NCBI GenBank assembly: GCA_964395915.1
Contig: CAYNDB010000005.1
Coordinates: 5,616 to 44,278 of the forward strand
Length of the DNA: 38,663 nt
Source of the DNA: an uncultured Nitrospinota bacterium
GTDB taxonomy: Bacteria; Nitrospinota_A; UBA7883; JAJRTC01
Reading direction: 5' to 3'
In this document: one piece after another, positions 12,972-28,054 of the stretch
Layout: every line of letters starts with the position of its first letter
How positions within the stretch are numbered: the stretch's first letter is position 1
Translations under genes and position numbers: made by a program
Notes under the pieces: generated by a model
Seen by the model: only the letters and a program-made list of their open reading frames with translations
Told to the model about the DNA's origin: nothing
The model's database searches: none

Positions 12972-15041
12972 TTACGCCCGCTCCGTTACCGCGTTTATCG
13001 ATTCATATAGAATATCGGTCATCTTGCCAATTTGTTCAACGCTAGCCGCCGGGGCGAGAAACAGAACAAGAATATCCCCCAGCGGGCGAATCAGAAGCCC
13101 CTTGCTCATAGCCTCCGAGGCGACTTTTGCCCCAACCCTGCTAGCGCTTGCATAAGGTTCTTTCGTGTCTCTGTTTTTCACCAGTTCGACCCCGGCGATA
13201 AGACCGCGCTGGCGAATATTCCCTACATTTTCCAGATCCTCATATCGAACAAGCATGTCGGATAGCGCGGCGCCTTTTTCCTGAATCTGCCCTATAATAT
13301 TTCGTTCTTCATACAGCTTCAGATTTTCCACCGCCACCGCGCAACCAAGCTGGTTGGCGGTATAGGTATGGCCGTGGTAGAAAGTCTTCCCCTCATGACG
13401 CTCTCCCAGAAACGCGTCGAAAACCTTTTGCGTAGCCAATGTCGCGGCCAAAGGCAGCATACCACCTGTTATCGACTTCGACACGGCCATGATATCGGGA
13501 GTCACGCCCTCGTGATCGCAGGCGAACATCTTGCCAGTCCTGCCAAAGCCAACCGCCACCTCATCCGCTATCAGCAAAACATCATGTTTGGCGCACAGTT
13601 CGGAGGCTCGTTTCAAATATCCGTGCGGCGCCGTTATAATCCCCGCCGGACATTGTACCAACGGCTCAATTATCATAGCCGCCACCTGCCCTTCGTTCGC
13701 TTTCAGCTTTTCGTCGATGATATCCGCGCATGCGATGGAGCATTGCGGATATGTTTTGCCGATCGGACAGCGATAGCAATATGGCGCCGGTGTAAATTCC
13801 ACGTCCATAAACATGTCACGGAATTTGCCGAAGAAAACATTACTGCCTCCTACAGACATGGAGCCTACCGTATCCCCGTGATATGCGTTATCCACCGCCA
13901 GAAACTTCGTCCTTTTTGATTTCGGATCGATGTTACGCCAATACTGAAACGCCATTTTGAGCCCGACCTCTATCGCCGTCGACCCGTCATCGGAATAAAA
14001 AACTTTCTCCAGTCCTGCTGGAGTAATCGAAACAAGTTTCTCCGCAAGGTCTACAGCGACAGTGTTGGATAGCCCCAGGAAAGTGGAGTGCGCTATTTTA
14101 TTCAGCTGCTTTCGCATGCTCTTGTTCATACGCAAGTCTCGATGTCCATGGACATTACACCAGTAGCTGGAAAATGCGTCCAGATATTCTTTCCCCTCAA
14201 TATCCCGCACTAGCGCGCCACGCCCGGAGTCAATCGTTACAACCGGCCCCGCCAGCCACTCTTTCATCTGCGTAAAAGGATGCCATACAAATTCCTTGTC
14301 CCGCTTCTCGTAATCATCATGTTTGCTTTCAGGGGAAAAGCTTTTTAATCGCTCCAGCAGAAGGTCGATATCAATGCTCGATTTTATGTGCGAAATAAGT
14401 TTTTTGGAGTCCGCCATATTTTCCAGATACTCAATCAACCCCAATACATGGCTTCCACTTTTTTCGTGGATAAAATCAAAATCAGGCTCCGGGAATTTAT
14501 TTTTCTTAAACTGATTGAATACGATTCCAGCGATCTTGAGCCCCAGCGTATCGGCGGCCTCCGCTGTTAGTAACGTGTGGTTAATGGTACCCAGGTAAGG
14601 ATGCGAGACAATTATCAACGGTATGTTCAGAAGGCTGGCCAGATCGCCCATATGGATGTCTTTTGTCAACGGCGCGAAGAGCCCTCCGGCCCCTTCCACT
14701 ATTACTATGTCATGCCTGGCGGCAAGCTCCCTGTATGCGGCAAGAATTTTATCAATGTCGATTTCCACACCTTCCTTTATTGCGGCGTGGTATGGCGAGA
14801 GAGGTTTTTTAAAACAGTAAGGGTTGATAAGCTCGATGGGATCGTCGCATTGAGCCATCTTTTTAAGAAACAGGGCGTCTTGAGGAACAAGCTTGCCGCC
14901 AACAGGTTTTGCGCCGGACTCCGCAGGTTTCATCACTCCAACACTCATCCCCCGCTTGCGTAAAACAGCGGCGATCCCGCCTGCTACGACAGTTTTACCG
15001 ACGCCTGTGTCGACGCCTGATATGAAGAGCCCCTTGGTCAC
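12972..15041 (-). CDS. bioA: Bifunctional dethiobiotin synthetase / DAPA aminotransferase (BioD-BioA fusion)
   Basis: N-terminal BioD (GVDTGVGKT, MKPAESG, IVEGAGG, LGTINHT) in frame with BioA (VWHPFTQM, AYHGDT, IADEVAVGFGRTG, PDIMAVSKSITGG, HGHTY). Confidence 0.93.
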   Translation of the reverse strand: MTKGLFISGVDTGVGKTVVAGGIAAVLRKRGMSVGVMKPAESGAKPVGGKLVPQDALFLKKMAQCDDPIELINPYCFKKPLSPYHAAIKEGVEIDIDKILAAYRELAARHDIVIVEGAGGLFAPLTKDIHMGDLASLLNIPLIIVSHPYLGTINHTLLTAEAADTLGLKIAGIVFNQFKKNKFPEPDFDFIHEKSGSHVLGLIEYLENMADSKKLISHIKSSIDIDLLLERLKSFSPESKHDDYEKRDKEFVWHPFTQMKEWLAGPVVTIDSGRGALVRDIEGKEYLDAFSSYWCNVHGHRDLRMNKSMRKQLNKIAHSTFLGLSNTVAVDLAEKLVSITPAGLEKVFYSDDGSTAIEVGLKMAFQYWRNIDPKSKRTKFLAVDNAYHGDTVGSMSVGGSNVFFGKFRDMFMDVEFTPAPYCYRCPIGKTYPQCSIACADIIDEKLKANEGQVAAMIIEPLVQCPAGIITAPHGYLKRASELCAKHDVLLIADEVAVGFGRTGKMFACDHEGVTPDIMAVSKSITGGMLPLAATLATQKVFDAFLGERHEGKTFYHGHTYTANQLGCAVAVENLKLYEERNIIGQIQEKGAALSDMLVRYEDLENVGNIRQRGLIAGVELVKNRDTKEPYASASRVGAKVASEAMSKGLLIRPLGDILVLFLAPAASVEQIGKMTDILYESINAVTERA

Positions 15042-15880
15042 ATCAACTCGCCTGCAATAGCGTCAATGTACACGACTTCATATGTCACCGCGATTCCGCC
15101 GTTTAAAGCGAAACGCGATCTGTATTCTTTCACAAAGTTGTCCATAACAGCGCGTCTTCCAAGGCCAAGGCTCGCCAACCCCGGATTACTCTGCACCCCG
15201 ATATTTTTTAATGAACGCATAAAAGTTGTGGCGTCTTTAAACTCGCGGATAAAAATTTCTTTTTCTATTTTCACGGTTAAACCCGCGCTTTCAGCCGCCG
15301 CCACAATGGCGCGTTCATCGGGGAACTTATGGAACATCGACTGGTCGACCTCTTTCCCCGATTGTTCAAACGCATATGTTACAGATTCCCTTAACTCGTG
15401 AAAGGTAGACTCTCCCAGTACTGTGGCGATCAGCCGCCCACCATTTTTCAACGATAAAGCCGCTTCTGAGAATATGGCTGGCAGGTCTTCTATCCATTGG
15501 AGCGCAAGGTTGGAAAAGCAAAGGTCTACAGACCCGTTTTTTACAGGCGCATATTCCGCATCCGCCTGCGCCACATGCAGGGAACCGTCATACCCGTTTC
15601 GCCGCGCCATTGCAGCCTGCGTCATTCCCTGCGAGATATCTAGCGCGAGCGTGGCGCGGAACATTCCAGACTGCGCGACCATGGCCGCAAGCTCCCCGGT
15701 TCCACATCCAATCTCCATCGCAACAGAACCCGTTAGCTTTTGCGAGACGATTCTTTCGAAAAGCGTTTTCGCCATCTCACGCTGAAATGTGGCGGATGAA
15801 TCATATGTAGCGGCGCTTTTGTCAAACGCCATACGTATTATCGACTTTCGCCTCGCAGGCGACGTTGCTGGTTTATCCAT
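15038..15880 (-). CDS. bioC: Malonyl-ACP O-methyltransferase BioC-like
   Basis: AFDKSAATYD, SAM motif MEIGCGTG, SNLALQW, TFHEL; located within the biotin operon. Confidence 0.85.
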   Translation of the reverse strand: MDKPATSPARRKSIIRMAFDKSAATYDSSATFQREMAKTLFERIVSQKLTGSVAMEIGCGTGELAAMVAQSGMFRATLALDISQGMTQAAMARRNGYDGSLHVAQADAEYAPVKNGSVDLCFSNLALQWIEDLPAIFSEAALSLKNGGRLIATVLGESTFHELRESVTYAFEQSGKEVDQSMFHKFPDERAIVAAAESAGLTVKIEKEIFIREFKDATTFMRSLKNIGVQSNPGLASLGLGRRAVMDNFVKEYRSRFALNGGIAVTYEVVYIDAIAGELM

Positions 15881-16673
15881 CTTTCAAAATGAAATCCGTT
15901 ATTGATTCGTCCACCTCCGGCAGACAGGTGAGATGAGGCGCGTGTCCGGCGGACTCCAGGCAAACCTCTTGTAAATTATCGAACAGGCCTTTCCAGAGCC
16001 GCTGACCGCCAACGGGGCATATTTTATCCAGCCTTCCGTAAATTAGCAACACCTGCCCATCGTAACGTCCACCTTGTTGTGTAAGATCAGTTCTGGCAAG
16101 TTCGTCCAATGTTGATAACAACGCTTCTTTATTGGGGGGAAACTCCGACGGATAAAAAAGCTTTTCTATCCGCGCCCGTTCCCCTTCCGATATTTTCTCG
16201 CCAGATTCAAAAAAACGGTCTGTAAAGTCGCGTAAACCAGAGTCGGCGTCCCGTATTATCAACCGCGCCATCTTCTTTACAGCGGCGGGATGCTGGCCCA
16301 GCCCAAGGTTATGTGTTGTCGTTACAAACTTAGGCGTGGCGCCCAGAAGAGTCAACGACTCCGGAGCCCGTCCAAAATTTTCCAGACTGTAAAGCGCCGC
16401 GATAGCCCCTCCCATCGACCATCCCAAAAGATGGTATGGCGGATCGCCTAATGTATTAATGACTCCGGTCAGAACATCACAATATCGCATAAACGTATAT
16501 GGCCCACCATCTTCTTTAGCCGAGCCGTGTCCTGGCAGATCGAACGAAATCACGCGGAACTTTTCTTTTAACGATTCCGCTAACGGCTCGAAAGCTTTTT
16601 TTGTCTGCCCCCATCCATGAACCATAACAAGTATCGGGCCATGTCCAACGTCGGAAATCGTAATTTTTTTCAT
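15873..16673 (-). CDS. bioH: Pimeloyl-ACP methyl ester carboxylesterase BioH-like alpha/beta hydrolase
   Basis: VHGWG, DLPGHG, nucleophile GWSMGG, G..D, AGHAPH; AAGGA RBS before ATG 16673; adjacent to bioC. Confidence 0.82.
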   Translation of the reverse strand: MKKITISDVGHGPILVMVHGWGQTKKAFEPLAESLKEKFRVISFDLPGHGSAKEDGGPYTFMRYCDVLTGVINTLGDPPYHLLGWSMGGAIAALYSLENFGRAPESLTLLGATPKFVTTTHNLGLGQHPAAVKKMARLIIRDADSGLRDFTDRFFESGEKISEGERARIEKLFYPSEFPPNKEALLSTLDELARTDLTQQGGRYDGQVLLIYGRLDKICPVGGQRLWKGLFDNLQEVCLESAGHAPHLTCLPEVDESITDFILKDG

Positions 16674-17368
16674 GCATCCTTTGTACATCGTTACGGATGA
16701 AAAAGCCATATCCGGCTTTTTCCGAGGGCTTGTAAAAAAGCGTAAAACCTATTCAGGCTCTTTTTCGTTCAGATCATCAGAGAGTGAAATAACCCGCTTT
16801 AAGTATTTATAAACGATGTTACGCACAAGTATTTTATTTCTTTTTAGGTTAGATCAAAATGATAGAGCGCTATTTTTATTAACACAATATTTCTCCAGCG
16901 CCCTATTTTGTCGTCAGGTTCCCTGTAACCACTTTTTCTGTAAACCCGTTTACCACTATCGGGGAACCCCTTAAAAGCGCACTAAAAACCACAAAATATA
17001 AAACAGAATAACCCATATAACATATTGTATTAACTGGATTTAAGCGCGGGACATTAAGACTGTCCGGCGCAAGCGTTATAGCTTCGTCAATACATCAATT
17101 TCTATCAAGCCCCAATAGAAAAAGAAAGTCATTCAAAATAAAGCAGTCTTGATGTTTTTTCGATATTTGCCTTGACTGTTTGCCGCATACCGTTGAAACT
17201 AATAATATTATTACTTTAATTTAATGCCTAAGTTAGTGGTCTATCTCCGGCAAGGAGCAATGTCAGGCGACATTTCATATTGCTATTGCGCTCGAAAAAA
17301 AATGACGATTTGGAAACGATGGTCTGAAATGGTTAATACGGTTTGAAATATTTGGAAGGTTGTAACAC

Positions 17369-19108
17369 ATGAAGGGATTAAGTCTGCAAAACAAAATAGC
17401 TGTCTCCATTGCGATGGCGCTGATTGTATCGGCCATAGTACTTTCCGTTTTTTACATACGTGAATACAAAGCCAACGCGTTAGAGGGGATGCATTTCAAG
17501 GCCAAAGCTATCGGTCAGATGGCCGAAAATGCGAGAGTAGCCGCAGGACAAGCGGTTTCCGATTACAAAGCGATAAAGTCTGACGAGATGCTGGCCGAAG
17601 CCAGGGAAGCTTTAAAAGGCCTGACAGTTGGATCGGAAGCTTATTTTAGCGCATTACGCAAGTCGCGATATTACAACACGGCGATACCGGTTGTGTGGGC
17701 GTTTAAAGCGGCTTTGAACGGCGCGGAGAGAAGCCATTTCGCTTTCAAGCCGACGAGGTTCGACGCCAGAAACCCGGAATATGAACCGGTAACATCCACA
17801 GAAAAGGATCTTTTAAGAGAACTCAAGCAATCGGGCAAGCTTGAAATCCAGGGTATTGATAAAGAAAAAAACGTTTTGCGATATATGCGCGCAGTCAAGC
17901 TTACAAGTGAGTGCCTCGTATGCCACGGTACCGCTAATGACGACGCTTCCCATCCTGATACCATGGTGGATCCTATCGGTTTTCGCAAGGAGGGAAAACG
18001 AGCTGGAGATATGCACGGCGCGTTCCAGGTGGTTATGGATATGGCTCCACTCGACAAATCCGTTGCCTCAATGGAACGAATGGCGCTCGGAACGTCAGCG
18101 GCGATCGTGCTTGTCGCATGTATCGCCGTGGTCCTTTTCATAAGACGCTCGGTTATTGGCCCTATAACCGGTATCACGAGCAATATGGGAGACGGAGCCA
18201 ACCAGGTGACCGACGCGTCGGGGCAGGTGTCTGGAGCTTCTCAAAGCCTTGCCGAAGGCGCTACAGAGCAAGCCGCGTCGCTTGAAGAGACGGCCGCGTC
18301 CGTCAAGGATATTGCGGACAGGGCAAAGCAAAACGCCGAAAGCTCCAACATCGCCACAAGCCTGATGGGGGAAATGGGCAAACTTGTGAACAACGGCAGT
18401 ACATCTATGGATAAAATGGTCAAAGCCATTAACTCCATAAAGGACAGCAGTAACGAGGTATCCAAGATCATCAAGGTGATCGAGGAGATAGCGTTCCAGA
18501 CAAACCTGCTGGCGTTAAACGCGGCGGTGGAGGCGGCGCGAGCCGGCGAACATGGCAAGGGTTTCGCTGTAGTCGCTGAAGAAGTGCGCAACCTCGCCCA
18601 GCGCTCCGCAACCGCGGCAAGGGATACAGCGGGCCTTATAGCGGACTCCTCCTCGAAATCGGACGAAGGTGTGGCGATAGTGAATGAGGCGGTGAAGGCC
18701 TTGAACGCTATTACGGAAAGCTCCAAAAAAGTGGGCGACCTCGTAAGTGAGATCGCCGAAGCGTCCATGGACCAGTCTCAGGGAGTCGATCAGGTAAGTG
18801 AGGCGCTCGCCCAGATCGACAAGGTGACGCAACAGAACGCTTCCGCTGCGGAAGAGTCAGCCGCCGCCAGTGAACAGCTTTCCGCGCAAGCGGATTCACT
18901 GCGAGGCATGATTATTAACATGCAGAGCGTGATCCAGGGAGGAGCGTCCAACGAAGGAAACGGCGGCAACGGACTTGTGCGACAATCATCGCCATCGTCT
19001 CAACGCCTGGGGATTTCGACCGCTCCGCTAAAAAAGTTGGGGTCTTTTGGCAAACCAAAGGCTGACACCAGCGAGATACCGTTTGACGACGATTTCAAGG
19101 AGTTTTAG
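17369..19108 (+). CDS. Methyl-accepting chemotaxis protein with periplasmic heme-c (DUF3365/Tll0287-like) sensor domain
   Basis: Two TM helices, periplasmic ARNP..EP and CLVCHG (CxxCH); signalling hairpin [40 protein letters not shown]. Confidence 0.92.
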
Positions 19109-19214
19109 GAGTTTTACCTTTTAATCGGTAACGGAAGCCCGGCGCCTGTAGAATATCCGCATTCGTCGGGCTTCCTTGCCGTTGTCGATAACCGAGACAC
19201 AAAAGGAAGTTGAG

Positions 19215-19739
19215 ATGAACGTAGCCGAGGAAGTGAAAGAAGAGACTGTGCAGAAACAGATTTTGAGCGAGCATACGAGCAAATACCTTACGTTTGTTCT
19301 GGGGGAGGAAGAGTATGGCCTTGAGATACTCAAAGTGCGTGAAATCATCGGAATCATGGAAATAACCAGCGTCCCGCAAACCCCGGAGTTTATAAAAGGT
19401 GTGATAAACCTGCGAGGGAAAGTAATACCAGTGGTTGATCTTCGGCGTAAGTTCGGCATGGAGACAGCGGAATATACGGAAGAGACTTGCATCATCGTGG
19501 TAGACATAGCCGCATCGTCGATGGGTATATTGGTGGACACTGTATCCGAAGTTTTGGACATTCCTCAGGAAAGTATTGAGCCGCCACCCTCGTTCGGCTC
19601 CAGTATAAACACAGAGTTCATATTGGGTATGGGAAAAATTAAAGGTAAAGTAAAAATACTGCTCGATATAAACAAGGTGCTTTCCACAACAGACCTCACG
19701 ACTATTTCTAACGTAGTGGAAAATAACCAGGAGGAATAA
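19215..19739 (+). CDS. cheW: Chemotaxis coupling protein CheW
   Basis: KYLTFVLGEEEYG, ITSVPQTPEFIKGVINLRGKVIPVVDLR, GILVDTVSEV; AAGGA RBS before ATG 19215. Confidence 0.94.
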   Translation: MNVAEEVKEETVQKQILSEHTSKYLTFVLGEEEYGLEILKVREIIGIMEITSVPQTPEFIKGVINLRGKVIPVVDLRRKFGMETAEYTEETCIIVVDIAASSMGILVDTVSEVLDIPQESIEPPPSFGSSINTEFILGMGKIKGKVKILLDINKVLSTTDLTTISNVVENNQEE

Positions 19740-20059: not shown

Positions 20060-20860
20060 TTGAAATCAAAATTCAAGACTGATCCGCCACCATTGTGGCT
20101 CTTGGCTCTGCGCGGCGTAACGTTTTACACCGTATTGGGCTTATGTATCATTTTGTCCTTATCCAGACCTGCCTTGGCCGACGAACCTTTTATCATAAAT
20201 GTGGCGCGTGAAAACCCGGTAAATCGCATTGTAATTTCCGGTGAAATAAAAGGCGCTTTCACACCTGAAATCGAGGAAACAATAAAAAGCGGAGTCCCGA
20301 TTACTTTCACCTATTACCTGCAACTAAAACGCCCAAGAGCCATCATCTGGAACGAAACTATTCGCACTCTGGTTATCAAGCGAATGGTGAAGTTCGACAC
20401 GTTGCGCAACAAGTATCTTACCTGGGTGAAAAAATCTATGGAGAATGACATAGATTTCGAAGCTGAGCTTGTGGCCGCAGGGTTTAAAAAAGACAACGGG
20501 CATGAGGCGCTTGATGAAAAACCGGGCGAGCAAAAAGATCGAGCGACTGGGCCTCCCGCTATGGAGCCGGATATTATAGAGAATCTGGAACAAGTGAAAC
20601 TATGGATGACGAAGCTTGATAGAATAGACCTTGGGCCTGTTGAAGACCTTGCCCAGTCGACTCCGTATTACGCTCGAGTAAAATGCGAGATGAAATCCGT
20701 TAAACTCATACCTCCTTTCAGCTACATTCTTGCGTTCGTCTATCCAATGGACTTCGATACGGACTGGAGCGTCTCGGCAATGTTTACGATCAATAACGCA
20801 AGCGGGACATCGGCGACACATGGCGACAAAAAGAAAAAAGAACTGGGAAAAGCTGAATAG
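20060..20860 (+). CDS. DUF4390-like exported protein
   Basis: Signal/TM segment ending PALA; ETIKSGVPITFTY and DFDTDW motifs; position directly upstream of an NtrY-like kinase; start codon uncertain (TTG). Confidence 0.72.
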   Translation: MKSKFKTDPPPLWLLALRGVTFYTVLGLCIILSLSRPALADEPFIINVARENPVNRIVISGEIKGAFTPEIEETIKSGVPITFTYYLQLKRPRAIIWNETIRTLVIKRMVKFDTLRNKYLTWVKKSMENDIDFEAELVAAGFKKDNGHEALDEKPGEQKDRATGPPAMEPDIIENLEQVKLWMTKLDRIDLGPVEDLAQSTPYYARVKCEMKSVKLIPPFSYILAFVYPMDFDTDWSVSAMFTINNASGTSATHGDKKKKELGKAE

Positions 20861-20881: not shown

Positions 20882-23215
20882 ATGAGCATAAAAAACCAAT
20901 CCCGCAGGGCTTTAAACTTTATTAAGTGGCTGGTGGTGCCAGGCGACTATAGCGGTGTAGAGCCAAACGACGTTGTGGCAAGCCGGAAGCGCAAGACTCG
21001 CGCTGTAATATTCATAACAACGGTCATATTCATCTCAATGACCATCTTTGTTCTTCTATGGGAGAACTCTGGCGGCTCTACCCCTCTGGTAAACGATCTG
21101 GCTGTCGCGTTAATATTAAATCTGGGTGTTATACTGCTTATCGCTTTGGCGTTGCTGGTCGCGCGCAACCTGGCAAAGCTTTATATCGAAAGACGTGGAA
21201 AGATAGCAGGCTCCATGTTCCAGACCAAGCTTGTCATCTCCTTCCTGCTGATGACCCTTATACCCACCGCGCTTCTGTTCTTCGTCGCATCAGAGCTTAT
21301 CGGAGCTACGGTGGACAACTGGATCAACACCAAAGTCGAGAGCACTTTACGTGAATCGCTGGAAGTGGCCGACAGCCTTTACAGACAGTCTGAAGAAAAA
21401 GTACGGGCCAACGCCGCATATCTTTCGGGCCTGGCGGGAAGGCGCGGGCTTTTGAAACCAGAGTCAATAAGCGACCTCAACAGAGTTCTCCGTCAAAAGC
21501 TAAGAGAATACAATGTAGACCTTATACAAGCCTATAACGAGGACTTTGAGCTTATAGCCGTAGCGGCCAGACCGAAAACGGAGGCAAGCTATAACCTGGA
21601 CGACAAACCCGATATTCTTGCCAGAGTCGCTTTTGGAGAAACCATAACGGATTTTCATGACCTGCAAGAAGGAAAAATGGTGGTGTCTCTGGCTCCGGTA
21701 AAAACAGATCGCAGTTCGGGACAGGCAAAGGGAGTCATGCTAGTGGCAAAACAGGTGACCAAGCGGCTCATCGAAAAGGCCCAATCCATCACAAATGCTT
21801 TCGAGGATTACAAGCAGCTTACGTTAAAAAAGGAGCTTATAAAATCCTCCTATCAGGTAACCTTGGCGATCGTGGCTCTTGTCCTCCTCTTCTCAGCCAT
21901 ATGGATCGGCTTCTACCTTGCCAAAAGTATTACCGTTCCACTAAAAACACTTTCTGAAGCGACTGAAAAAATTTCCAAAGGAGACCTGGATGTAAAAATC
22001 GACCTGCCAGCGGGAAGTGATGAGGTGGGGCAGCTTGTGAGCGCCTTCAATACAATGACAGATGATCTTAAAACCACCCAAAAGCGGTTTAAGCAGGCAA
22101 ACAGAGACCTGACAGAGTCAAATATTGAGTTGCATCACTGGGGCCAATATATAGAAGCTGTGCTGGATAATGTCGCTGGCGGAGTGATTTCGATAGATAA
22201 AAGTGGCTCTGTGACCACCATCAACGATTCCGCGGCGCGCATGTTTGGCCTGAAGCCTGATGACGCCAGGGGGAAAAATTACAGAAAACTGTTTGACACA
22301 ATTCTTCTCGACCCCATAAAGCGTATGGTGCGTGAAATACATAAGATGGGAACCGATACTATGGAGCGTGAATTTAATGTAAAACTTGGAGGGGAGCTTA
22401 GAACCCTGAAGGTGAATATCTCTGTGTTGCAAGACCATGACGGTCAATATATGGGAACCGTTTTTGTCTTCGACGATCTAACGGAAGTTATTGCGGCGCA
22501 ACGCTCTATCGCATGGAGGGAAATGGCCCGCGTTATGGCTCATGAAATAAAAAACCCGCTCACCCCAATCCAACTTAACGCTCAGCGTATGCGCCTGAAA
22601 TACGCAAAAAAAACGCCCGATTTCCCAAAAGTCTTCGACGACGCCACCAACACGATAATTCAGGAAGTGGATGAATTGAAAAAGCTTGTGGACAAATTTA
22701 CAAAAGCGGCGCATCTTGCCGATGGCGGACAGCCCGACACACAGTTGAAGGATGTAAAAATGCTGGAGCTGTCCCCGGAGCCAAACATGCTGCACGATAT
22801 AATTTATGAGGTCCTGCGGTTGTATAAGGGAACGCGCCCGGGAATAAGCCTGTTGACAGACCTTGATCCTTCAGTGCAGCTGGTCAATATTGACGCTGGC
22901 CAGATTAAGCGAGTCTTCATCAACCTGGTGGAAAACGCTATAGACGCAATTAACGGTGGCGGGGAAATAACCATTCGAACAAAAAAGTTGGCGCAACAGG
23001 AAAAAGTTCAGATTGAGGTTGCGGACACAGGTCGTGGAGTTTCAGAAGAAGTGAGAAAAAGCCTTTTCACTCCATATTTTTCCACAAAGCCGGATGGAGC
23101 GGGGCTTGGACTGGCTATAGTAAACAGAGTTGTAGAGGACCATGGAGGAAGTATCGTGGCAAAGGAAAACGAACCGAAAGGCACAGTGTTTAAAATCGAA
23201 CTGCCCATTGAATAA
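20882..23215 (+). CDS. ntrY: NtrY-like sensor histidine kinase (HAMP, PAS)
   Basis: Three N-terminal TMs, KLVISF..MTLIP, periplasmic domain, TM, HAMP (DEVGQLVSAFNTM), PAS, AWREMARVMAHEIKNPLTPIQL, N/G1/F/G2 boxes. Confidence 0.85.
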   Translation: MSIKNQSRRALNFIKWLVVPGDYSGVEPNDVVASRKRKTRAVIFITTVIFISMTIFVLLWENSGGSTPLVNDLAVALILNLGVILLIALALLVARNLAKLYIERRGKIAGSMFQTKLVISFLLMTLIPTALLFFVASELIGATVDNWINTKVESTLRESLEVADSLYRQSEEKVRANAAYLSGLAGRRGLLKPESISDLNRVLRQKLREYNVDLIQAYNEDFELIAVAARPKTEASYNLDDKPDILARVAFGETITDFHDLQEGKMVVSLAPVKTDRSSGQAKGVMLVAKQVTKRLIEKAQSITNAFEDYKQLTLKKELIKSSYQVTLAIVALVLLFSAIWIGFYLAKSITVPLKTLSEATEKISKGDLDVKIDLPAGSDEVGQLVSAFNTMTDDLKTTQKRFKQANRDLTESNIELHHWGQYIEAVLDNVAGGVISIDKSGSVTTINDSAARMFGLKPDDARGKNYRKLFDTILLDPIKRMVREIHKMGTDTMEREFNVKLGGELRTLKVNISVLQDHDGQYMGTVFVFDDLTEVIAAQRSIAWREMARVMAHEIKNPLTPIQLNAQRMRLKYAKKTPDFPKVFDDATNTIIQEVDELKKLVDKFTKAAHLADGGQPDTQLKDVKMLELSPEPNMLHDIIYEVLRLYKGTRPGISLLTDLDPSVQLVNIDAGQIKRVFINLVENAIDAINGGGEITIRTKKLAQQEKVQIEVADTGRGVSEEVRKSLFTPYFSTKPDGAGLGLAIVNRVVEDHGGSIVAKENEPKGTVFKIELPIE

Positions 23216-23335: not shown

Positions 23336-25474
23336 ATGAAAAAAGGCAAGATTATCGTCGTAGACGACGAGGATAATATTAGAGGAACCCTTCAGGAAAT
23401 CCTTTCCGACGAAGGGTATGAGGTCACCTGCGCCAAAGATGGAGAAACGGCCCTGCGAGTTTTCCAAAAAGAAGCTCCAGATGTCGTATTGCTGGATGTC
23501 TGGATCCCCGGCATCGACGGAATGCAGACGCTCAAAATGCTGAAAAATATCGACCCCGAGACAGAAATCATCATGATGAGCGGCCACGGCAGCATAGACA
23601 CGGCCGTAAAGGCCACAAAGCTTGGAGCTTATGATTTTATCGAGAAACCTTTCTCGCTGGAGTCTATCCTTCGTATCGTGGCAAAGGCGCTTAGAAGCCG
23701 TCATATCCGTCTTTCCAAAAAACAGTCTGGAGGGCAGAGCGCGGAAAATATGGAGCGAAGATTCCTCGGCTCATCACAAAGCGCAAAAAATACAAGAAAG
23801 CTTATACGGCAGGCCGCCGGTAACGATAACCCTACGCTGATCGTGGGGGAGCCGGGGTTGGGAAAAAAGTTTGCCGCAAGGGTAATTCACAATTTATCCG
23901 CTCGACGTGGCAAGCCTTTTGTGGAGCTGTCGTGCGCCACATTGACTGAAGCCATTCTGGCGTCCACCCTCTTGGGAAATGAAAGCGCCGACCAGGATAT
24001 TGATATATCTGATCTTGGACTTTCTTCCGGCGGCGTTATTTTTTTCGATCGAATCGACAAGCTTTCATCAAGAATGCAGGAGAAGCTTTTTCAAATATTA
24101 AAAAACCGTCGATTCAGAATTCCCGGGGAAGACTCAAACAAAACTTTTAACATAAGAGCAATCGCTTCTGTCACTTCAGATCGGAGCGGCGTTGAAATTG
24201 GCGATCTTAACGAGGATTTGCAAAAGTTTTTGGGCCAAAATCTGATAAAACTTACGCCATTAAGAGAGCGGAGAGACGACCTTCCAAAGTTCATAGAACA
24301 ATTTGTCGATGACCTTTGCGATGAACATGAAAAGGATATAGGTTCGGTAAACAAGGAAGCCCTGAAAACTTTGATGCAAGCTCCGTGGCCCGGAAATGTT
24401 CGACAACTTAAACAGGTGGTCGAATACGCTGTCCTGGCTTGTGACGGGCCGACGTTGTTAAAAAATCACCTGCCGCTGTCCGAGCTGGATATAGCCTATG
24501 AAAAAAGCGCTGCAAACGCTTTTGACGACATATATTTTACCCGGCTTAAAGACCTTCCTCTATCGCCTGGTCATAGTGGAAAACAGACAGAAAAACGAAA
24601 AGGAAAAGGGCTTCCACAAAAAACGCTTAAAGACTCCGTGGTGTTATGCGGACAGGGTCTTCACTCCGGCATCAAAACTGGAATGATCCTCTCCCCGCTG
24701 CCGCCGAATTCCGGAATTGTGTTTGGAGAGATCAGCACGGGGGACAGGGTGCCGGCTCTTTTGAAGAACGTGCGAAGCACAGAATACGCCACGACACTTT
24801 CCAACGGACGGGTAACGATTAAAACCATCGAGCATATAATGTCCGCCCTGCATAGTTACGGGGTCACCAACCTGCTGATTAAAATCGGCGACGAGGCGCC
24901 AATCATGGACGGCTCGGCCCTCGATTTTTGCCAGATTATCGAAAATAGCGGCGTTAAGGAACAGGATGATTTCATAGAAGAAGTCATTATCGATAAAAAG
25001 ATCTCTGTTGGCGACACGGAAAATGGACCTTCGCTTACCGTGGAGCCTTCCGATCGATTCTCCATACACTACTTTCTCGATTACCCCTCGCCTATCGGCA
25101 AACAGGAATATAAATATGTTTATGAATCGGGCGAAAAATATAAAGAGACCATAGCTCCGGCCCGCACCTTCGGTTTTTTACGCGACATAAAAAAGCTGGA
25201 AGAGGCGGGGCTTGCCAGCGGCGGGAAATTATCTAACGTTGTGTTGATAGATGACGAAAGGGTGGTAAACACACCATTGCGGTTTTCAAACGAAATGGCC
25301 CGGCATAAAATACTGGATCTTATAGGTGACCTGCATCTTCTCGGCAAGCCTATACGGGGTCATTTTACCGCAATGAAAAGCGGACATACGCAGAACATTG
25401 AGCTTACACAGAAAATTCTCGACTATGTGACGGAGTCTGAATCGAAAGTGGCTGAAAAACATGCCGTCTCCTGA
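23336..25474 (+). CDS. lpxC: Fusion protein: NtrX-like receiver + degenerate sigma54-activator AAA+ domain + UDP-3-O-acyl-GlcNAc deacetylase (LpxC)
   Basis: REC (VVDDE, LLDVWIPG, MMSGHG, FIEKPF); AAA+ remnants (GEPGLGKK, FFDRI, PLRERRDD, WPGNVRQL); from about 24617 LpxC (QKTL, GLHSG, TIEHIMSAL, PIMDGSA, IAPARTFGF, RHKILDLIGDL, KSGHTQN). Confidence 0.92.
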   Translation: MKKGKIIVVDDEDNIRGTLQEILSDEGYEVTCAKDGETALRVFQKEAPDVVLLDVWIPGIDGMQTLKMLKNIDPETEIIMMSGHGSIDTAVKATKLGAYDFIEKPFSLESILRIVAKALRSRHIRLSKKQSGGQSAENMERRFLGSSQSAKNTRKLIRQAAGNDNPTLIVGEPGLGKKFAARVIHNLSARRGKPFVELSCATLTEAILASTLLGNESADQDIDISDLGLSSGGVIFFDRIDKLSSRMQEKLFQILKNRRFRIPGEDSNKTFNIRAIASVTSDRSGVEIGDLNEDLQKFLGQNLIKLTPLRERRDDLPKFIEQFVDDLCDEHEKDIGSVNKEALKTLMQAPWPGNVRQLKQVVEYAVLACDGPTLLKNHLPLSELDIAYEKSAANAFDDIYFTRLKDLPLSPGHSGKQTEKRKGKGLPQKTLKDSVVLCGQGLHSGIKTGMILSPLPPNSGIVFGEISTGDRVPALLKNVRSTEYATTLSNGRVTIKTIEHIMSALHSYGVTNLLIKIGDEAPIMDGSALDFCQIIENSGVKEQDDFIEEVIIDKKISVGDTENGPSLTVEPSDRFSIHYFLDYPSPIGKQEYKYVYESGEKYKETIAPARTFGFLRDIKKLEEAGLASGGKLSNVVLIDDERVVNTPLRFSNEMARHKILDLIGDLHLLGKPIRGHFTAMKSGHTQNIELTQKILDYVTESESKVAEKHAVS

Positions 25475-26081
25475 AAAGATTAAGCTGGCGGTTTTAGCGT
25501 CCGGCAGAGGCACAAACTTACAGGCCCTGATCGACGCTTTCCGCGGTGGCGATAAAAACGTGGAAATTGTCCTGGTATTGAGTGACAATCCAGGCGCCAA
25601 GGCGCTGGAGCGGGCAAAAAAGCATGACATACCCACCTGTGTGGTAGAGCGGAAAAATTTTGGCTCCCGAGCTGAATTCGACGACGCGCTGGCGGACGCT
25701 ATACAAAAGAGTGGCGCAAAACTTGTGGCGTTGGCGGGTTTCATGCGTATTCTCTCCGGCCGTTTCCTCTCAAGATTTCCTGACCGGGTGATAAACATAC
25801 ATCCTGCCCTGTTACCCTCGTTCCCTGGTCTTGACGCGCAAAAGCAGGCGCTGGAGCATGGAGTAAAAATTACCGGGGCTACAGTTCATTTCGTTGACGA
25901 GGGGGTCGATACAGGGCCGATAATCCTTCAGGCCGCGGTTCCCGTAGCGAAGGACGACACAGTGGAAAGCCTCAGCGCGCGGATTCTGGAACAGGAGCAC
26001 ATCATTTACCCCGAAGCCATTACACTTATAGCTTCCGGTAAAATTAGCCCGCCCATGGCAAAAAAAGTCCATTCCACTTAA
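25461..26081 (+). CDS. purN: Phosphoribosylglycinamide formyltransferase
   Basis: LASGRGTNLQAL, LAGFMRIL, INIHPALLPSFPG, GATVHFVDEGVDTGPII. Confidence 0.96.
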   Translation: MPSPEKIKLAVLASGRGTNLQALIDAFRGGDKNVEIVLVLSDNPGAKALERAKKHDIPTCVVERKNFGSRAEFDDALADAIQKSGAKLVALAGFMRILSGRFLSRFPDRVINIHPALLPSFPGLDAQKQALEHGVKITGATVHFVDEGVDTGPIILQAAVPVAKDDTVESLSARILEQEHIIYPEAITLIASGKISPPMAKKVHST

Positions 26082-26131: not shown

Positions 26132-26818
26132 ATGAATTTTTCACGCAGACAATACGTTATCCCGGCTTTACTGGCCTCATTATGTCTATTTCCGCTTGTC
26201 TCAATAGCCTCAGAAACAGACAGCGTAATCGATAAAATAGAAGCGTCTTTTCGTAATACAAGGGCCATGACCGCCTCCTTCACCCAGGTTATGGAGAGCA
26301 AAGGCTTGGGGCAAGTTATTGAAAAATTGAGCGGTAAAATGTATATGGTAAAACCTTCCAAAATGAGGTGGGAGTATGCCAATCCCAAAGGAAGATTGAT
26401 GGTTGTAGATGGCAAGCGCCTGTGGTTTTACGACCCCAAGGAAAATGTGACACGTTACGACGATCTTGCGGGGCTTTTAAGCCCGGACTCTCCCGCTCTG
26501 TTTCTTGCCGGCGATGCGGCTCTACGAGATATTTTCACGGTTGAGTTGGTCAAACCTGGGAAAAAGGATACACTAAAAACCATAAAGCTCAGGTTAACGC
26601 CGAAGGAGCCGCAGCCAGGCCTTAAAGCAATGGCGCTTGTTCTGGATAGCGTCTCGCTTGATATTGTAGAGCTTTTAATGGTCGATCACCTTGGAAACAG
26701 AAACAGAATAAAATTTTATAACATCGACCGTAACGCAGACCCGGATCGTAAACTGTTTCAGTTTACACCTCCAGAAGGCTCGCCTGTCCGAGCTATTGGA
26801 GAACCACTTGGAAAATAA
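26132..26818 (+). CDS. lolA: Outer-membrane lipoprotein carrier protein LolA
   Basis: Signal peptide, ASFTQ, KPSKMRWEY, VVDGKRLWFYDP, SPALFLAG, FQFTPPEG. Confidence 0.88.
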   Translation: MNFSRRQYVIPALLASLCLFPLVSIASETDSVIDKIEASFRNTRAMTASFTQVMESKGLGQVIEKLSGKMYMVKPSKMRWEYANPKGRLMVVDGKRLWFYDPKENVTRYDDLAGLLSPDSPALFLAGDAALRDIFTVELVKPGKKDTLKTIKLRLTPKEPQPGLKAMALVLDSVSLDIVELLMVDHLGNRNRIKFYNIDRNADPDRKLFQFTPPEGSPVRAIGEPLGK

Positions 26819-26842: not shown

Positions 26843-28054
26843 ATGGATATGTTACTTACTACATTTTCAATATTACCGGTTTTAAGCGTCGAGAAGCTTT
26901 ATGGCTGGGCTACATTCGGTGTGTCCGCGGTCGGAGTGCTGGCGATGCTTATCGTGGCCCACGAGTTCGGTCATTTTATCGTAGCTCGCATGGTCGGAGT
27001 GCGGGTGGAAAAGTTTTCTATCGGTTTTGGCAAAAAGCTGATAGGAAGAAAATATGGCGACACCGAGTATATGCTCTGTCTGATTCCACTGGGCGGGTAT
27101 GTAAAGTTCTATGGGGACGACCCGGGCATTCCCGCTGAAAACGAGGAAGACTCCTTTCTTGCGCAGAAGGTATGGAAACGTCTGTCCATCGTTGTCGCCG
27201 GCCCACTTTTTAACATTATACTTGCCGTGTTCATTATAGCGTCCGCCGCAATGATAGGCCTTCCTGTGGTAAGCATGGAATCCGGGGAGGAGAAGCCTAT
27301 CTTCATTGCCGCTGCAATGATAAGAACCGACCAGAAAAATATGCCGCCTCAAATCGGCCAGGTTATGGAAAAATCGCCCGCCGAAAAATATGGATTACAA
27401 CCCAACGACACCATCCTCGCCATTAATGGAGCCCCCATAAAGCTGTGGATGGAAATGGTTGAGGTTATACAAAAATCTCCGGGAATAGAAATAAAACTGA
27501 AAGTAAAACGAATGTCCGGGGAAATACTGGAGATACCGCTAGTACCGAACAAGGTGAAGGCTACGACCGCCGACGGAAAGGAAACTTTCATTGGAAGGAT
27601 AGGTGTCTCACAACAATCAATAATAAAAGGTTCCCCCCACGTAGTCGCGTATTCACCTGTTGATGCGCTTTCCAATGGGGTCCGGTGGACCTGGGATTTT
27701 GTGTCCCTCACCGCCTGGTCTCTTACCAAGCTTCTTTCCCGTGATATACCGGCCAAGGAGATCGCCGGCCCAATCGGAATAATGCAGATCGCCGGAAAAG
27801 CCGCCGAGAGTGGGATAGTCAACTTGCTTATGTTTATAGCGCTTATTTCTGTAAACCTTGGCATCCTGAACCTGTTACCTATTCCAGTGCTGGACGGTGG
27901 CCACATATTCTTCTTCTCGATCGAAGCTCTGATTGGGCGACCGATTCAACTTAAGGCACAGGAGATCGCGCAACAGGTAGGCATATTTCTCCTCTTAAGC
28001 CTTATGGCGCTGGCGTTTTATAACGATATTATGCGAATTGTCAATAGCAGCTGA
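26843..28054 (+). CDS. rseP: RIP zinc metalloprotease RseP (single PDZ)
   Basis: HEFGH, FSIGFG, IPLGGYVK, AGPLFN, GPIGI, NLLPIPVLDGGH. Confidence 0.94.
   Translation: MDMLLTTFSILPVLSVEKLYGWATFGVSAVGVLAMLIVAHEFGHFIVARMVGVRVEKFSIGFGKKLIGRKYGDTEYMLCLIPLGGYVKFYGDDPGIPAENEEDSFLAQKVWKRLSIVVAGPLFNIILAVFIIASAAMIGLPVVSMESGEEKPIFIAAAMIRTDQKNMPPQIGQVMEKSPAEKYGLQPNDTILAINGAPIKLWMEMVEVIQKSPGIEIKLKVKRMSGEILEIPLVPNKVKATTADGKETFIGRIGVSQQSIIKGSPHVVAYSPVDALSNGVRWTWDFVSLTAWSLTKLLSRDIPAKEIAGPIGIMQIAGKAAESGIVNLLMFIALISVNLGILNLLPIPVLDGGHIFFFSIEALIGRPIQLKAQEIAQQVGIFLLLSLMALAFYNDIMRIVNSS

Follow-up and report, generated by a model that had tools for sequence, protein, structure and literature searches.

LpxC catalyzes the committed reaction of the lipid A pathway. 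Both an excess and a shortage of LpxC are lethal in model bacteria, and the enzyme is an antibiotic target. To our knowledge, little has been established about how LpxC is regulated outside Proteobacteria. Response regulators with enzymatic or effector outputs, such as CheB, PleD, RpfG, and RssB, are gated by phosphorylation. As described in the accessible sections of a 2025 review on lipid A regulation (PMC12444477), LpxC is controlled post-translationally by FtsH/LapB/YejM proteolysis in Escherichia coli and by MurA activation in Pseudomonas aeruginosa. According to excerpts of the respective reports, the loss of ntrYX in Rhodobacter sphaeroides raises the lpxC transcript 8.8-fold and increases lipopolysaccharide (LPS) (PMC7240162; PMC12444477, section 10), an NtrYX effect on lpxC/LPS is also given for Caulobacter (PMC12444477), and lpxC is the single mapped target of the Desulfovibrio vulgaris sigma-54 regulator DVU2934 (PMC3333781). 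A fusion of LpxC with FabZ/FabA is described for Bacteroidota and related groups in the available part of the record (NCBIfam PRK13188; 10.1101/2025.10.16.682753). In this study, we analyzed a stretch of 38,663 nucleotides (hereafter, the window) from an uncultured Nitrospinota bacterium (assembly GCA_964395915.1, contig CAYNDB010000005.1, positions 5,616 to 44,278). It carries a gene in which a response-regulator receiver (REC) domain, a degenerate AAA+ module, and a complete LpxC are fused in one polypeptide. As judged from the conservation of its parts, LpxC output here is probably under direct two-component control, exerted post-translationally through phosphorylation of the fused receiver.

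As in CheB, PleD, RpfG, and RssB, the REC domain of the fusion is linked flexibly to a catalytic or effector domain. The relationship to those proteins is limited to REC, and the output differs, since it is a biosynthetic Zn-amidase of the lipid A pathway and not a signaling enzyme. Whereas FtsH/LapB/YejM and MurA act in trans on a stand-alone LpxC, the sensor input here lies within the polypeptide. Like LpxC-FabZ/FabA, this is a natural LpxC fusion that is widespread across whole phyla; however, the partner in LpxC-FabZ/FabA is a metabolic enzyme at the C-terminus, and here it is a signaling module at the N-terminus.

The open reading frame encodes 712 amino acids (aa), starts with ATG, and has no internal stop (Table 1). 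The REC domain is followed by matches to the Pfam families Sigma54_activat (residues 144–296, 93.7 bits) and AAA_lid_14 (residues 310–382). PF03331 (LpxC) matched residues 428–695 at 284 bits (cut-off, 27; E = 1e-84), covering positions 1–267 of the 268 in the model, and the lpxC equivalog TIGR00325 of NCBIfam gave 261 bits on the C-terminal part against a cut-off of 187. No Pfam match to HTH_8 was found in the 712-aa protein at E ≤ 0.01. Thus, the description in the first-pass annotation, which was made from the letters of the window alone, holds: a single uninterrupted frame, a complete LpxC from Q428, and no Fis-type helix-turn-helix (HTH). For the N-terminal part, the top NCBIfam model was NtrX (NF051870), which matched only residues 5–373; since its score of 288 bits is below the cut-off of 600, the fusion is not an NtrX equivalog. 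The locus is like NtrY-NtrX in the domains of its kinase (NtrY_N, HAMP, PAS, HisKA, and HATPase_c), in its NtrX-type REC, and in its GAFTGA-less AAA+ module. In contrast, canonical NtrX carries a DNA-binding HTH at its C-terminus and regulates the transcription of many genes, whereas the fusion ends in LpxC and lacks an HTH. On this comparison of domains, the fusion functions in the manner of an NtrX-like regulator, from which it also descends, without being an NtrX equivalog.

Because the source genome is a draft of 185 contigs, an assembly or sequencing artefact has to be considered, in which a lost stop or a frameshift would have joined two neighboring genes. However, a stop-free, one-piece match across nearly the whole protein was found in 22 of 40 relatives, and in five more (G014, G019, G020, G023, and G035) both halves lie in one open frame. 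In G023, one TGA was seen within the match in the first search and none in a later search. All of the best 120 database clusters possess REC, Sigma54_activat, AAA_lid, and LpxC. Their source names are Nitrospinota, Nitrospinae, Nitrospinaceae, or Candidatus Schekmanbacteria, and their automatic annotation is 'LpxC' or 'NtrX'; the sequences were thus already public. Furthermore, four independent sequencing runs, one from each of four studies, gave Logan contigs that bridge the AAA/LpxC junction. The sole length difference in these contigs is an in-frame CGT (+3 nt) behind position 24566 in the tether, present in two of the four runs; since it is in-frame, the reading frame across the junction is kept among strains. 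The probability of an artefact is therefore negligible. The fusion is confirmed as a real gene, far beyond chance or artefact.

The tether between the AAA+ module and LpxC raises another point, namely whether LpxC works as a separate polypeptide, freed by an internal start or by proteolysis of the tether, with the fusion as a precursor only. In the AlphaFold2 (AF2) model of the full protein (mean pLDDT, 84; pTM, 0.52), residues 390–422 have pLDDT values below 50, so the tether is predicted to be disordered and protease-accessible, and GTG codons are present at V435 and V436. Against this explanation, in-frame ATG, GTG, or TTG codons are completely missing between L374 (TTG, in the AAA lid) and V435/V436. 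Both GTG codons already fall inside the first strand of LpxC, and the 20 nt in front of them contain no Shine-Dalgarno-like purine run; the next ATG is M450. Only 14 of 120 relatives show a Met in the 12 residues that precede the LpxC N-terminus, and its position is not fixed. We therefore regard the two-polypeptide explanation as highly improbable. The earlier argument that this is not a simple read-through of two genes, and that no start codon directly precedes the LpxC part, is borne out by these data: artefact, read-through, and internal start were rejected on the open frames of the relatives, the bridging contigs, and the missing start codons.

The source genome (2.52 Mb, 91% complete) contains one PF03331 match, which is the fusion gene; a search for another, stand-alone lpxC in this genome found none. 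The LpxA (C-terminal family) and LpxB families are also present. In a survey of the phylum, LpxC was detected in 29 of 33 genomes, and in 27 of these 29 it is located in an open frame of 674–962 aa. Shorter LpxC frames were seen in two genomes, G017 and G027, and the two pieces of G017 lie near the starts of two contigs. The four genomes without an LpxC match are 76–86% complete. No intact stand-alone lpxC was found in the 33 genomes. G004, which has an intact fusion elsewhere, also carries at G004:C31:90834-91406 a second LpxC broken by frame shifts into three pieces (model positions 80–267); these resemble the decayed remains of an extra copy.

We compared the conservation of the domains in an alignment of 82 REC-AAA-LpxC sequences. 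In the receiver, D10, D11, D54, and K104 do not vary at all, and S82 is nearly invariant (≥90%). In LpxC, E499 and H500 (TIEH), H657, K658, D661, and D665 (HKILDLIGD), and H684 (SGH) are invariant. The LpxC part aligned to a solved LpxC chain (E = 5e-53), in which the corresponding motifs are TVEH, HKILDAIGD, and KSGH. We take the roles of the Zn ligands (His, His, and Asp) and of the catalytic Glu and His to be those assigned in work on the E. coli and P. aeruginosa enzymes. Thus, the phospho-Asp, Ser, and Lys positions of the receiver and the Zn ligands and catalytic His of LpxC, which had been read as intact in the single sequence, proved to be conserved throughout the family, and by its residues the fused LpxC is judged to be catalytically intact. 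The mean pairwise identity (first 42 rows) was 0.75 for REC, 0.74 for LpxC, 0.42 for the lid, 0.35 for the AAA core, and 0.14 for the tether. By this measure, REC and LpxC are under equal constraint.

These values bear on whether the REC-AAA part is a functionless leftover and LpxC is constitutive. The decay of the AAA+ core, with its identity of 0.35 and its lost catalytic motifs, would agree with such a vestigial passenger. However, REC is conserved like LpxC, the phospho-site residues are kept in the 82 long fusions (the Ser nearly always) and, apart from one alignment gap at D10, in the 42 short fusions described below, and the frame is preserved in the genomes examined and across strain-level insertions and deletions. 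A vestigial N-terminal part is thus quite improbable.

The top solved matches of the REC domain were 4d6x and 5m7n, with the common motifs D-x-W, ILSDEG, and GAYDFIEKPF. We take both structures to be Brucella NtrX, although the PDB titles shown do not state this. The D-x-W motif is invariant in three alignments (A2, A3, and A4), and a Trp at D+2 was found at only one of the 38 scorable REC places in the source genome. We count this motif, together with the recurring NtrY-like neighbor, in favor of one kind of kinase partner for all forms.

The AAA+ module showed a different pattern. Its Sigma54_activat score is 93.7 bits, compared with about 246 bits in unfused relatives. In the window's protein, Walker A is kept (GEPGLGKK), Walker B reads IFFDRI, and FREDLYYRL is replaced by NEDLQKFL. 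In all five fused proteins compared, including that of the window, the GAFTGA loop, the Walker-B Glu, the arginines of FREDLYYRL, and the sensor-I Asn are lost, whereas Walker A, PLRER, and WPGNV(R/K)(E/Q)L are retained. In contrast, the arginine-finger and sensor-I residues are kept in 5/5 unfused regulators encoded beside a stand-alone lpxC, and GAFTGA is present in all five (once as GSFTGA). A GAFTGA-like loop was found in none of 120 members of the fusion family, and the Walker-B acidic pair in 10 of the 82 fusion sequences. Since GAFTGA, the Walker-B Glu, the arginine finger, and the HTH are missing, the fusion is not a sigma-54 activator. Judging from these motifs, the AAA+ module in the clade of the query can no longer hydrolyze ATP, contact sigma-54, or bind DNA. 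Thus, the "AAA+-like domain" of the first-pass annotation is indeed there, but as a degenerate pseudo-ATPase that has lost the Walker-B Glu, GAFTGA, and the arginine finger.

HTH_8 was detected in 7 of 22 aligned relatives, and the corresponding stretch is deleted in the clade of the query; on this alignment, the query's lack of a Fis-type HTH is secondary, through loss or variation. The HTH-present and HTH-absent labels on our tree came from a crude regular expression that mislabels at least L024 and L027 (HTH-like stretch), and we infer neither how many times the HTH was lost nor in which direction. Since HTH_8 persists in 7/22 and the Walker-B pair in 10/82, the ancestor of the fusion may have combined an enzyme with a regulator that still worked. 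This would favor a stoichiometric or co-expression fusion, in which the N-terminal module signals on its own, through protein-protein interaction or, in HTH-bearing relatives, through DNA binding, and LpxC is attached for joint production, independently of phosphorylation. The long tether, predicted to be disordered, also fits independent domains. However, the clade of the query lacks the HTH, GAFTGA, the Walker-B Glu, and the arginine finger, and no recognizable separate output remains.

A further point against the co-expression fusion came from shorter relatives. A pattern scan seeded from fused sequences, with one genome per species, gave at least 593 relatives, and 80 of these were retained. 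Records with a fusion of about 700 aa carried the names Nitrospinota, Syntrophaceae, Desulfomonile, or 'delta proteobacterium'. At 42 loci (within L037–L091; e.g., L045:4001-5299 and L087:3977-5323), we found a REC-LpxC protein of about 420–450 aa without AAA+. In 13/13 sampled short open reading frames (about 430 aa), REC and LpxC are the only two Pfam domains. The records are named for about eight phylum-level groups: Thermodesulfobacteriota (Syntrophobacter, Syntrophorhabdus, and Desulfopila sp. IMCC35006), Nitrospirota (Thermodesulfovibrionia), Binatia, Acidobacteriota (Thermoanaerobaculia, Holophagae, and Terriglobia), Aminicenantes, Omnitrophota, Myxococcota, and Oligoflexales. D11, D54, S82, and K104 are present in 42/42 short fusions and D10 in 41/42 (one alignment gap), and the seven LpxC catalytic or Zn residues examined are kept in all 42. 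REC-LpxC is the sole LpxC in four of five genomes checked, while the Desulfopila isolate has a stand-alone copy as well. Since the short form has no other domain, its receiver has no possible output but LpxC. With all phospho-acceptor residues kept in such proteins, a fusion for joint production alone is unlikely. At L042:3041-5251, the frame is 737 aa long, and REC-LpxC is preceded in it by about 320 residues without a Pfam match; this N-terminal extension may simply be open sequence ahead of the real start.

To place the fused LpxC domains, a tree of 114 LpxC rows was built by a quick method after dropping L035 (frame-broken), L077, and L092 (both truncated). A branch with an SH-aLRT of 99 separated all 89 fused LpxC domains from the 25 stand-alone ones, and the query belonged to a 21-row clade of its own order (SH-aLRT, 99). 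In this tree, the fused LpxC domains are of common descent. The REC-LpxC groups are basal, but the AAA-containing clade has only 80% support, and the tree agrees with an insertion as well as with a deletion of AAA+. By eye, some REC-LpxC linkers resemble the post-REC coiled coil of the NtrC family. The search for the domain architecture thus showed that the fusion is phylum-wide rather than a one-off and that it is part of a larger receiver-LpxC family.

Eleven positions separate the fused LpxC from the 25 stand-alone sequences. The signature positions of the fused clade include G449, H506, K516, C532, L637, T646, Y667, and N687; K516 is Glu in 21/25 stand-alone sequences, C532 is Val or Ile in 22/25, and N687 is His in 20/25. 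Judging from the alignment, these positions may mark a regulatory surface. The C-terminal tail (window positions 25421–25471) is variable, and in close relatives a loose basic-[HY]-[AG] motif is seen (e.g., KHAVS, RHAVGK, and RYGGSR), which might act as a degron or as a point of membrane contact.

Unfused clusters related to the fusion were also found. A stand-alone lpxC is located directly upstream of a (DUF4390)-NtrY-like kinase-complete sigma-54 regulator set in L074 (NC10), L075 (a Deltaproteobacteria metagenome-assembled genome), L076 and L078 (Acidobacteria), L082 (Thermoanaerobaculia), and partly L067; the DUF4390 gene is present in L076 and L067. These clusters and DVU2934 are like the fusion in that an NtrC-family response regulator is paired functionally with lpxC. 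However, their regulators are separate proteins with complete GAFTGA, Walker B, arginine finger, and HTH. Using a criterion of at most two mismatches with GG and GC fixed, sigma-54-type -24/-12 boxes were detected 45–105 nt upstream of lpxC in four of five unfused loci, where the background of these loci themselves would give 0.17. Since L078 and L082 are near-identical, these represent about three independent cases. The boxes agree with the mapping of DVU2934 (PMC3333781) and with the ntrYX phenotype of R. sphaeroides (PMC7240162 and PMC12444477), as far as the consulted parts of these papers describe them. In the unfused clusters, the control of lpxC is presumably transcriptional, as the boxes and the complete regulators suggest.

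The kinase noted next to the fusion in the first-pass annotation is an NtrY-like protein (Table 1). All eight loci examined from the same order have an NtrY-like kinase next to the fusion; DUF4390 is found upstream of the kinase in seven of them (once displaced by 3.7 kb), purN and lolA in eight, and rseP in seven. Over 13 loci, including those without an adjacent kinase, purN and lolA follow the fusion in all and rseP in 12. Directly upstream of the fusion, a full-length NtrY-like kinase is also encoded at 11 of the 42 REC-LpxC loci, and L027 has an NtrY-like kinase in this place as well. The DUF4390 protein has no NCBIfam equivalog. At L022:9143-11134, an AAA_21 (AbiEii-type) ATPase and a RloB-like protein are found beside the fusion; this pair is defense-like and inserted where other genomes have the kinase. 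When PF18073 (the zinc ribbon) was used as the query for LapB in the source genome, the one match was the N-terminal zinc ribbon of a RadA-like protein, and LapB was not found with this query.

Because a conserved, intact receiver and an intact, needed enzyme are joined by a middle module without activator features, we read LpxC as directly controlled by a two-component system. In the proposed mechanism, the NtrY-like kinase encoded just upstream would most likely phosphorylate D54 of the fused receiver. A phosphorylation-driven change in the N-terminal module would then set the LpxC activity of the cell, acting on the protein rather than via transcription. The AAA+ module most likely persists as an oligomerization scaffold or spacer, to which LpxC would be tied by a flexible tether of about 35–45 residues. 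For the physical step, we rank first either a switch in oligomeric state that depends on phosphorylation or a steric gate on the tethered LpxC, analogous to the REC-controlled dimer/ring switch of NtrC-family proteins and to the REC occlusion in CheB. Phosphorylation-dependent exposure to proteolysis may be considered second, and changed localization at the membrane third. That phosphorylation acts on LpxC itself had been proposed from the single gene. The comparative part of this proposal is now supported by the minimal REC-LpxC proteins, the kinase at 11/42 loci, and unfused lpxC genes beside the same system, while the phosphotransfer and its effect on the activity, oligomeric state, or stability of LpxC are inferred from these patterns.

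Several observations weigh against direct two-component control of LpxC in this form. An adjacent kinase is present in 0/5 loci of another family of the same class (four loci) and G035 (one locus), which all keep the order fusion-purN-lolA-rseP, and 31 of the 42 REC-LpxC loci have no full-length NtrY-like neighbor; the assignment of the kinase therefore draws on a subset of the loci. The kinase itself reaches no NCBIfam equivalog cut-off. The AF2 model is confident for each domain and not for their mutual arrangement (pTM, 0.52), and no docking surface emerges from it; in the model of the short relative L045 (pTM, 0.75), the linker is likewise disordered. Furthermore, LpxC is a monomeric enzyme, and for this reason an effect of an oligomer switch on catalysis is hard to explain. 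With 25 sequences, the stand-alone set of the tree is small; it was picked by the pattern scan seeded from fused sequences, and the tree method was a quick one. With these points included, we still consider direct control through the fused receiver probable.

No description of REC-LpxC or REC-AAA-LpxC was found in the full-text literature searched, whose coverage excludes most subscription journals. LpxC-FabA is the sole LpxC fusion met in the portions of that literature seen, and the accessible portions of the 2025 review (PMC12444477) contain no mention of fusion, fused, or response regulator. The short REC-LpxC form, the unfused clusters, and the NtrY-like kinase recurring beside all three forms go beyond the first-pass annotation. 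The evidence leaves evenly balanced the broader reading that LpxC is a widespread, unrecognized response-regulator output domain in records named for about eight phylum-level groups and that the three forms make up one evolutionary series. This series would run from transcriptional to post-translational control: lpxC beside a sigma-54 regulator, REC-AAA-(HTH)-LpxC, and REC-LpxC. If so, it would be a third, self-contained solution of LpxC regulation beside FtsH/LapB proteolysis and MurA activation. A receiver within the enzyme would provide a direct and experimentally tractable route from a sensor to outer-membrane lipid synthesis. Moreover, the role of NtrYX in the envelope and LPS has so far been inferred from pleiotropic alphaproteobacterial mutants, and the unfused, long, and short forms give independent genomic evidence for NtrYX-type systems as dedicated envelope/LPS regulators.

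Table 1. Features of the fusion gene and its neighbors (positions in the window)
Feature	Position	Strand	Basis or remark
DUF4390 protein gene, first of the DUF4390-kinase-fusion set	20060..20860	+	PF14334, 67 bits
NtrY-like sensor histidine kinase, 777 aa, presumed cognate	20882..23215	+	Pfam NtrY_N, HAMP, PAS, HisKA, HATPase_c
REC - degenerate AAA+ - tether - LpxC fusion gene, 712 aa + stop	23336..25474	+	Pfam, NCBIfam
REC domain, residues 6–115, NtrX-type	23351..23680	+	Pfam Response_reg, 110 bits
AAA+ core + lid, residues 144–382; fold retained, ATPase/sigma-54 motifs gone	23765..24481	+	Pfam, motif comparison
Variable tether, residues 383–427; Fis-type HTH here in some relatives	24482..24616	+	AF2, alignment
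LpxC domain, residues 428–695, complete	24617..25420	+	Pfam, TIGR00325, solved-chain alignment
C-terminal tail, residues 696–712 + stop	25421..25474	+	14-nt overlap with purN start at 25461
purN	25461..26081	+	NCBIfam equivalog PurN, above cut-off
lolA	26132..26818	+	NCBIfam equivalog LolA, above cut-off
rseP	26843..28054	+	NCBIfam equivalog RseP, above cut-off

Just upstream of the DUF4390-kinase-fusion set (window positions 17369–19739, + strand), there are genes for CheW and for a methyl-accepting chemotaxis protein whose sensor domain is Tll0287-like; no link of these genes to the fusion was seen in relatives. On the opposite strand (window positions 12972–16709), a biotin-type cluster was observed. 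Its 689-aa open reading frame combines a dethiobiotin-synthetase-like AAA_26 domain with a class-III aminotransferase (BioD-BioA-like fusion). After this frame come genes for a methyltransferase and an alpha/beta hydrolase, which are BioC/BioH-like by Pfam only.

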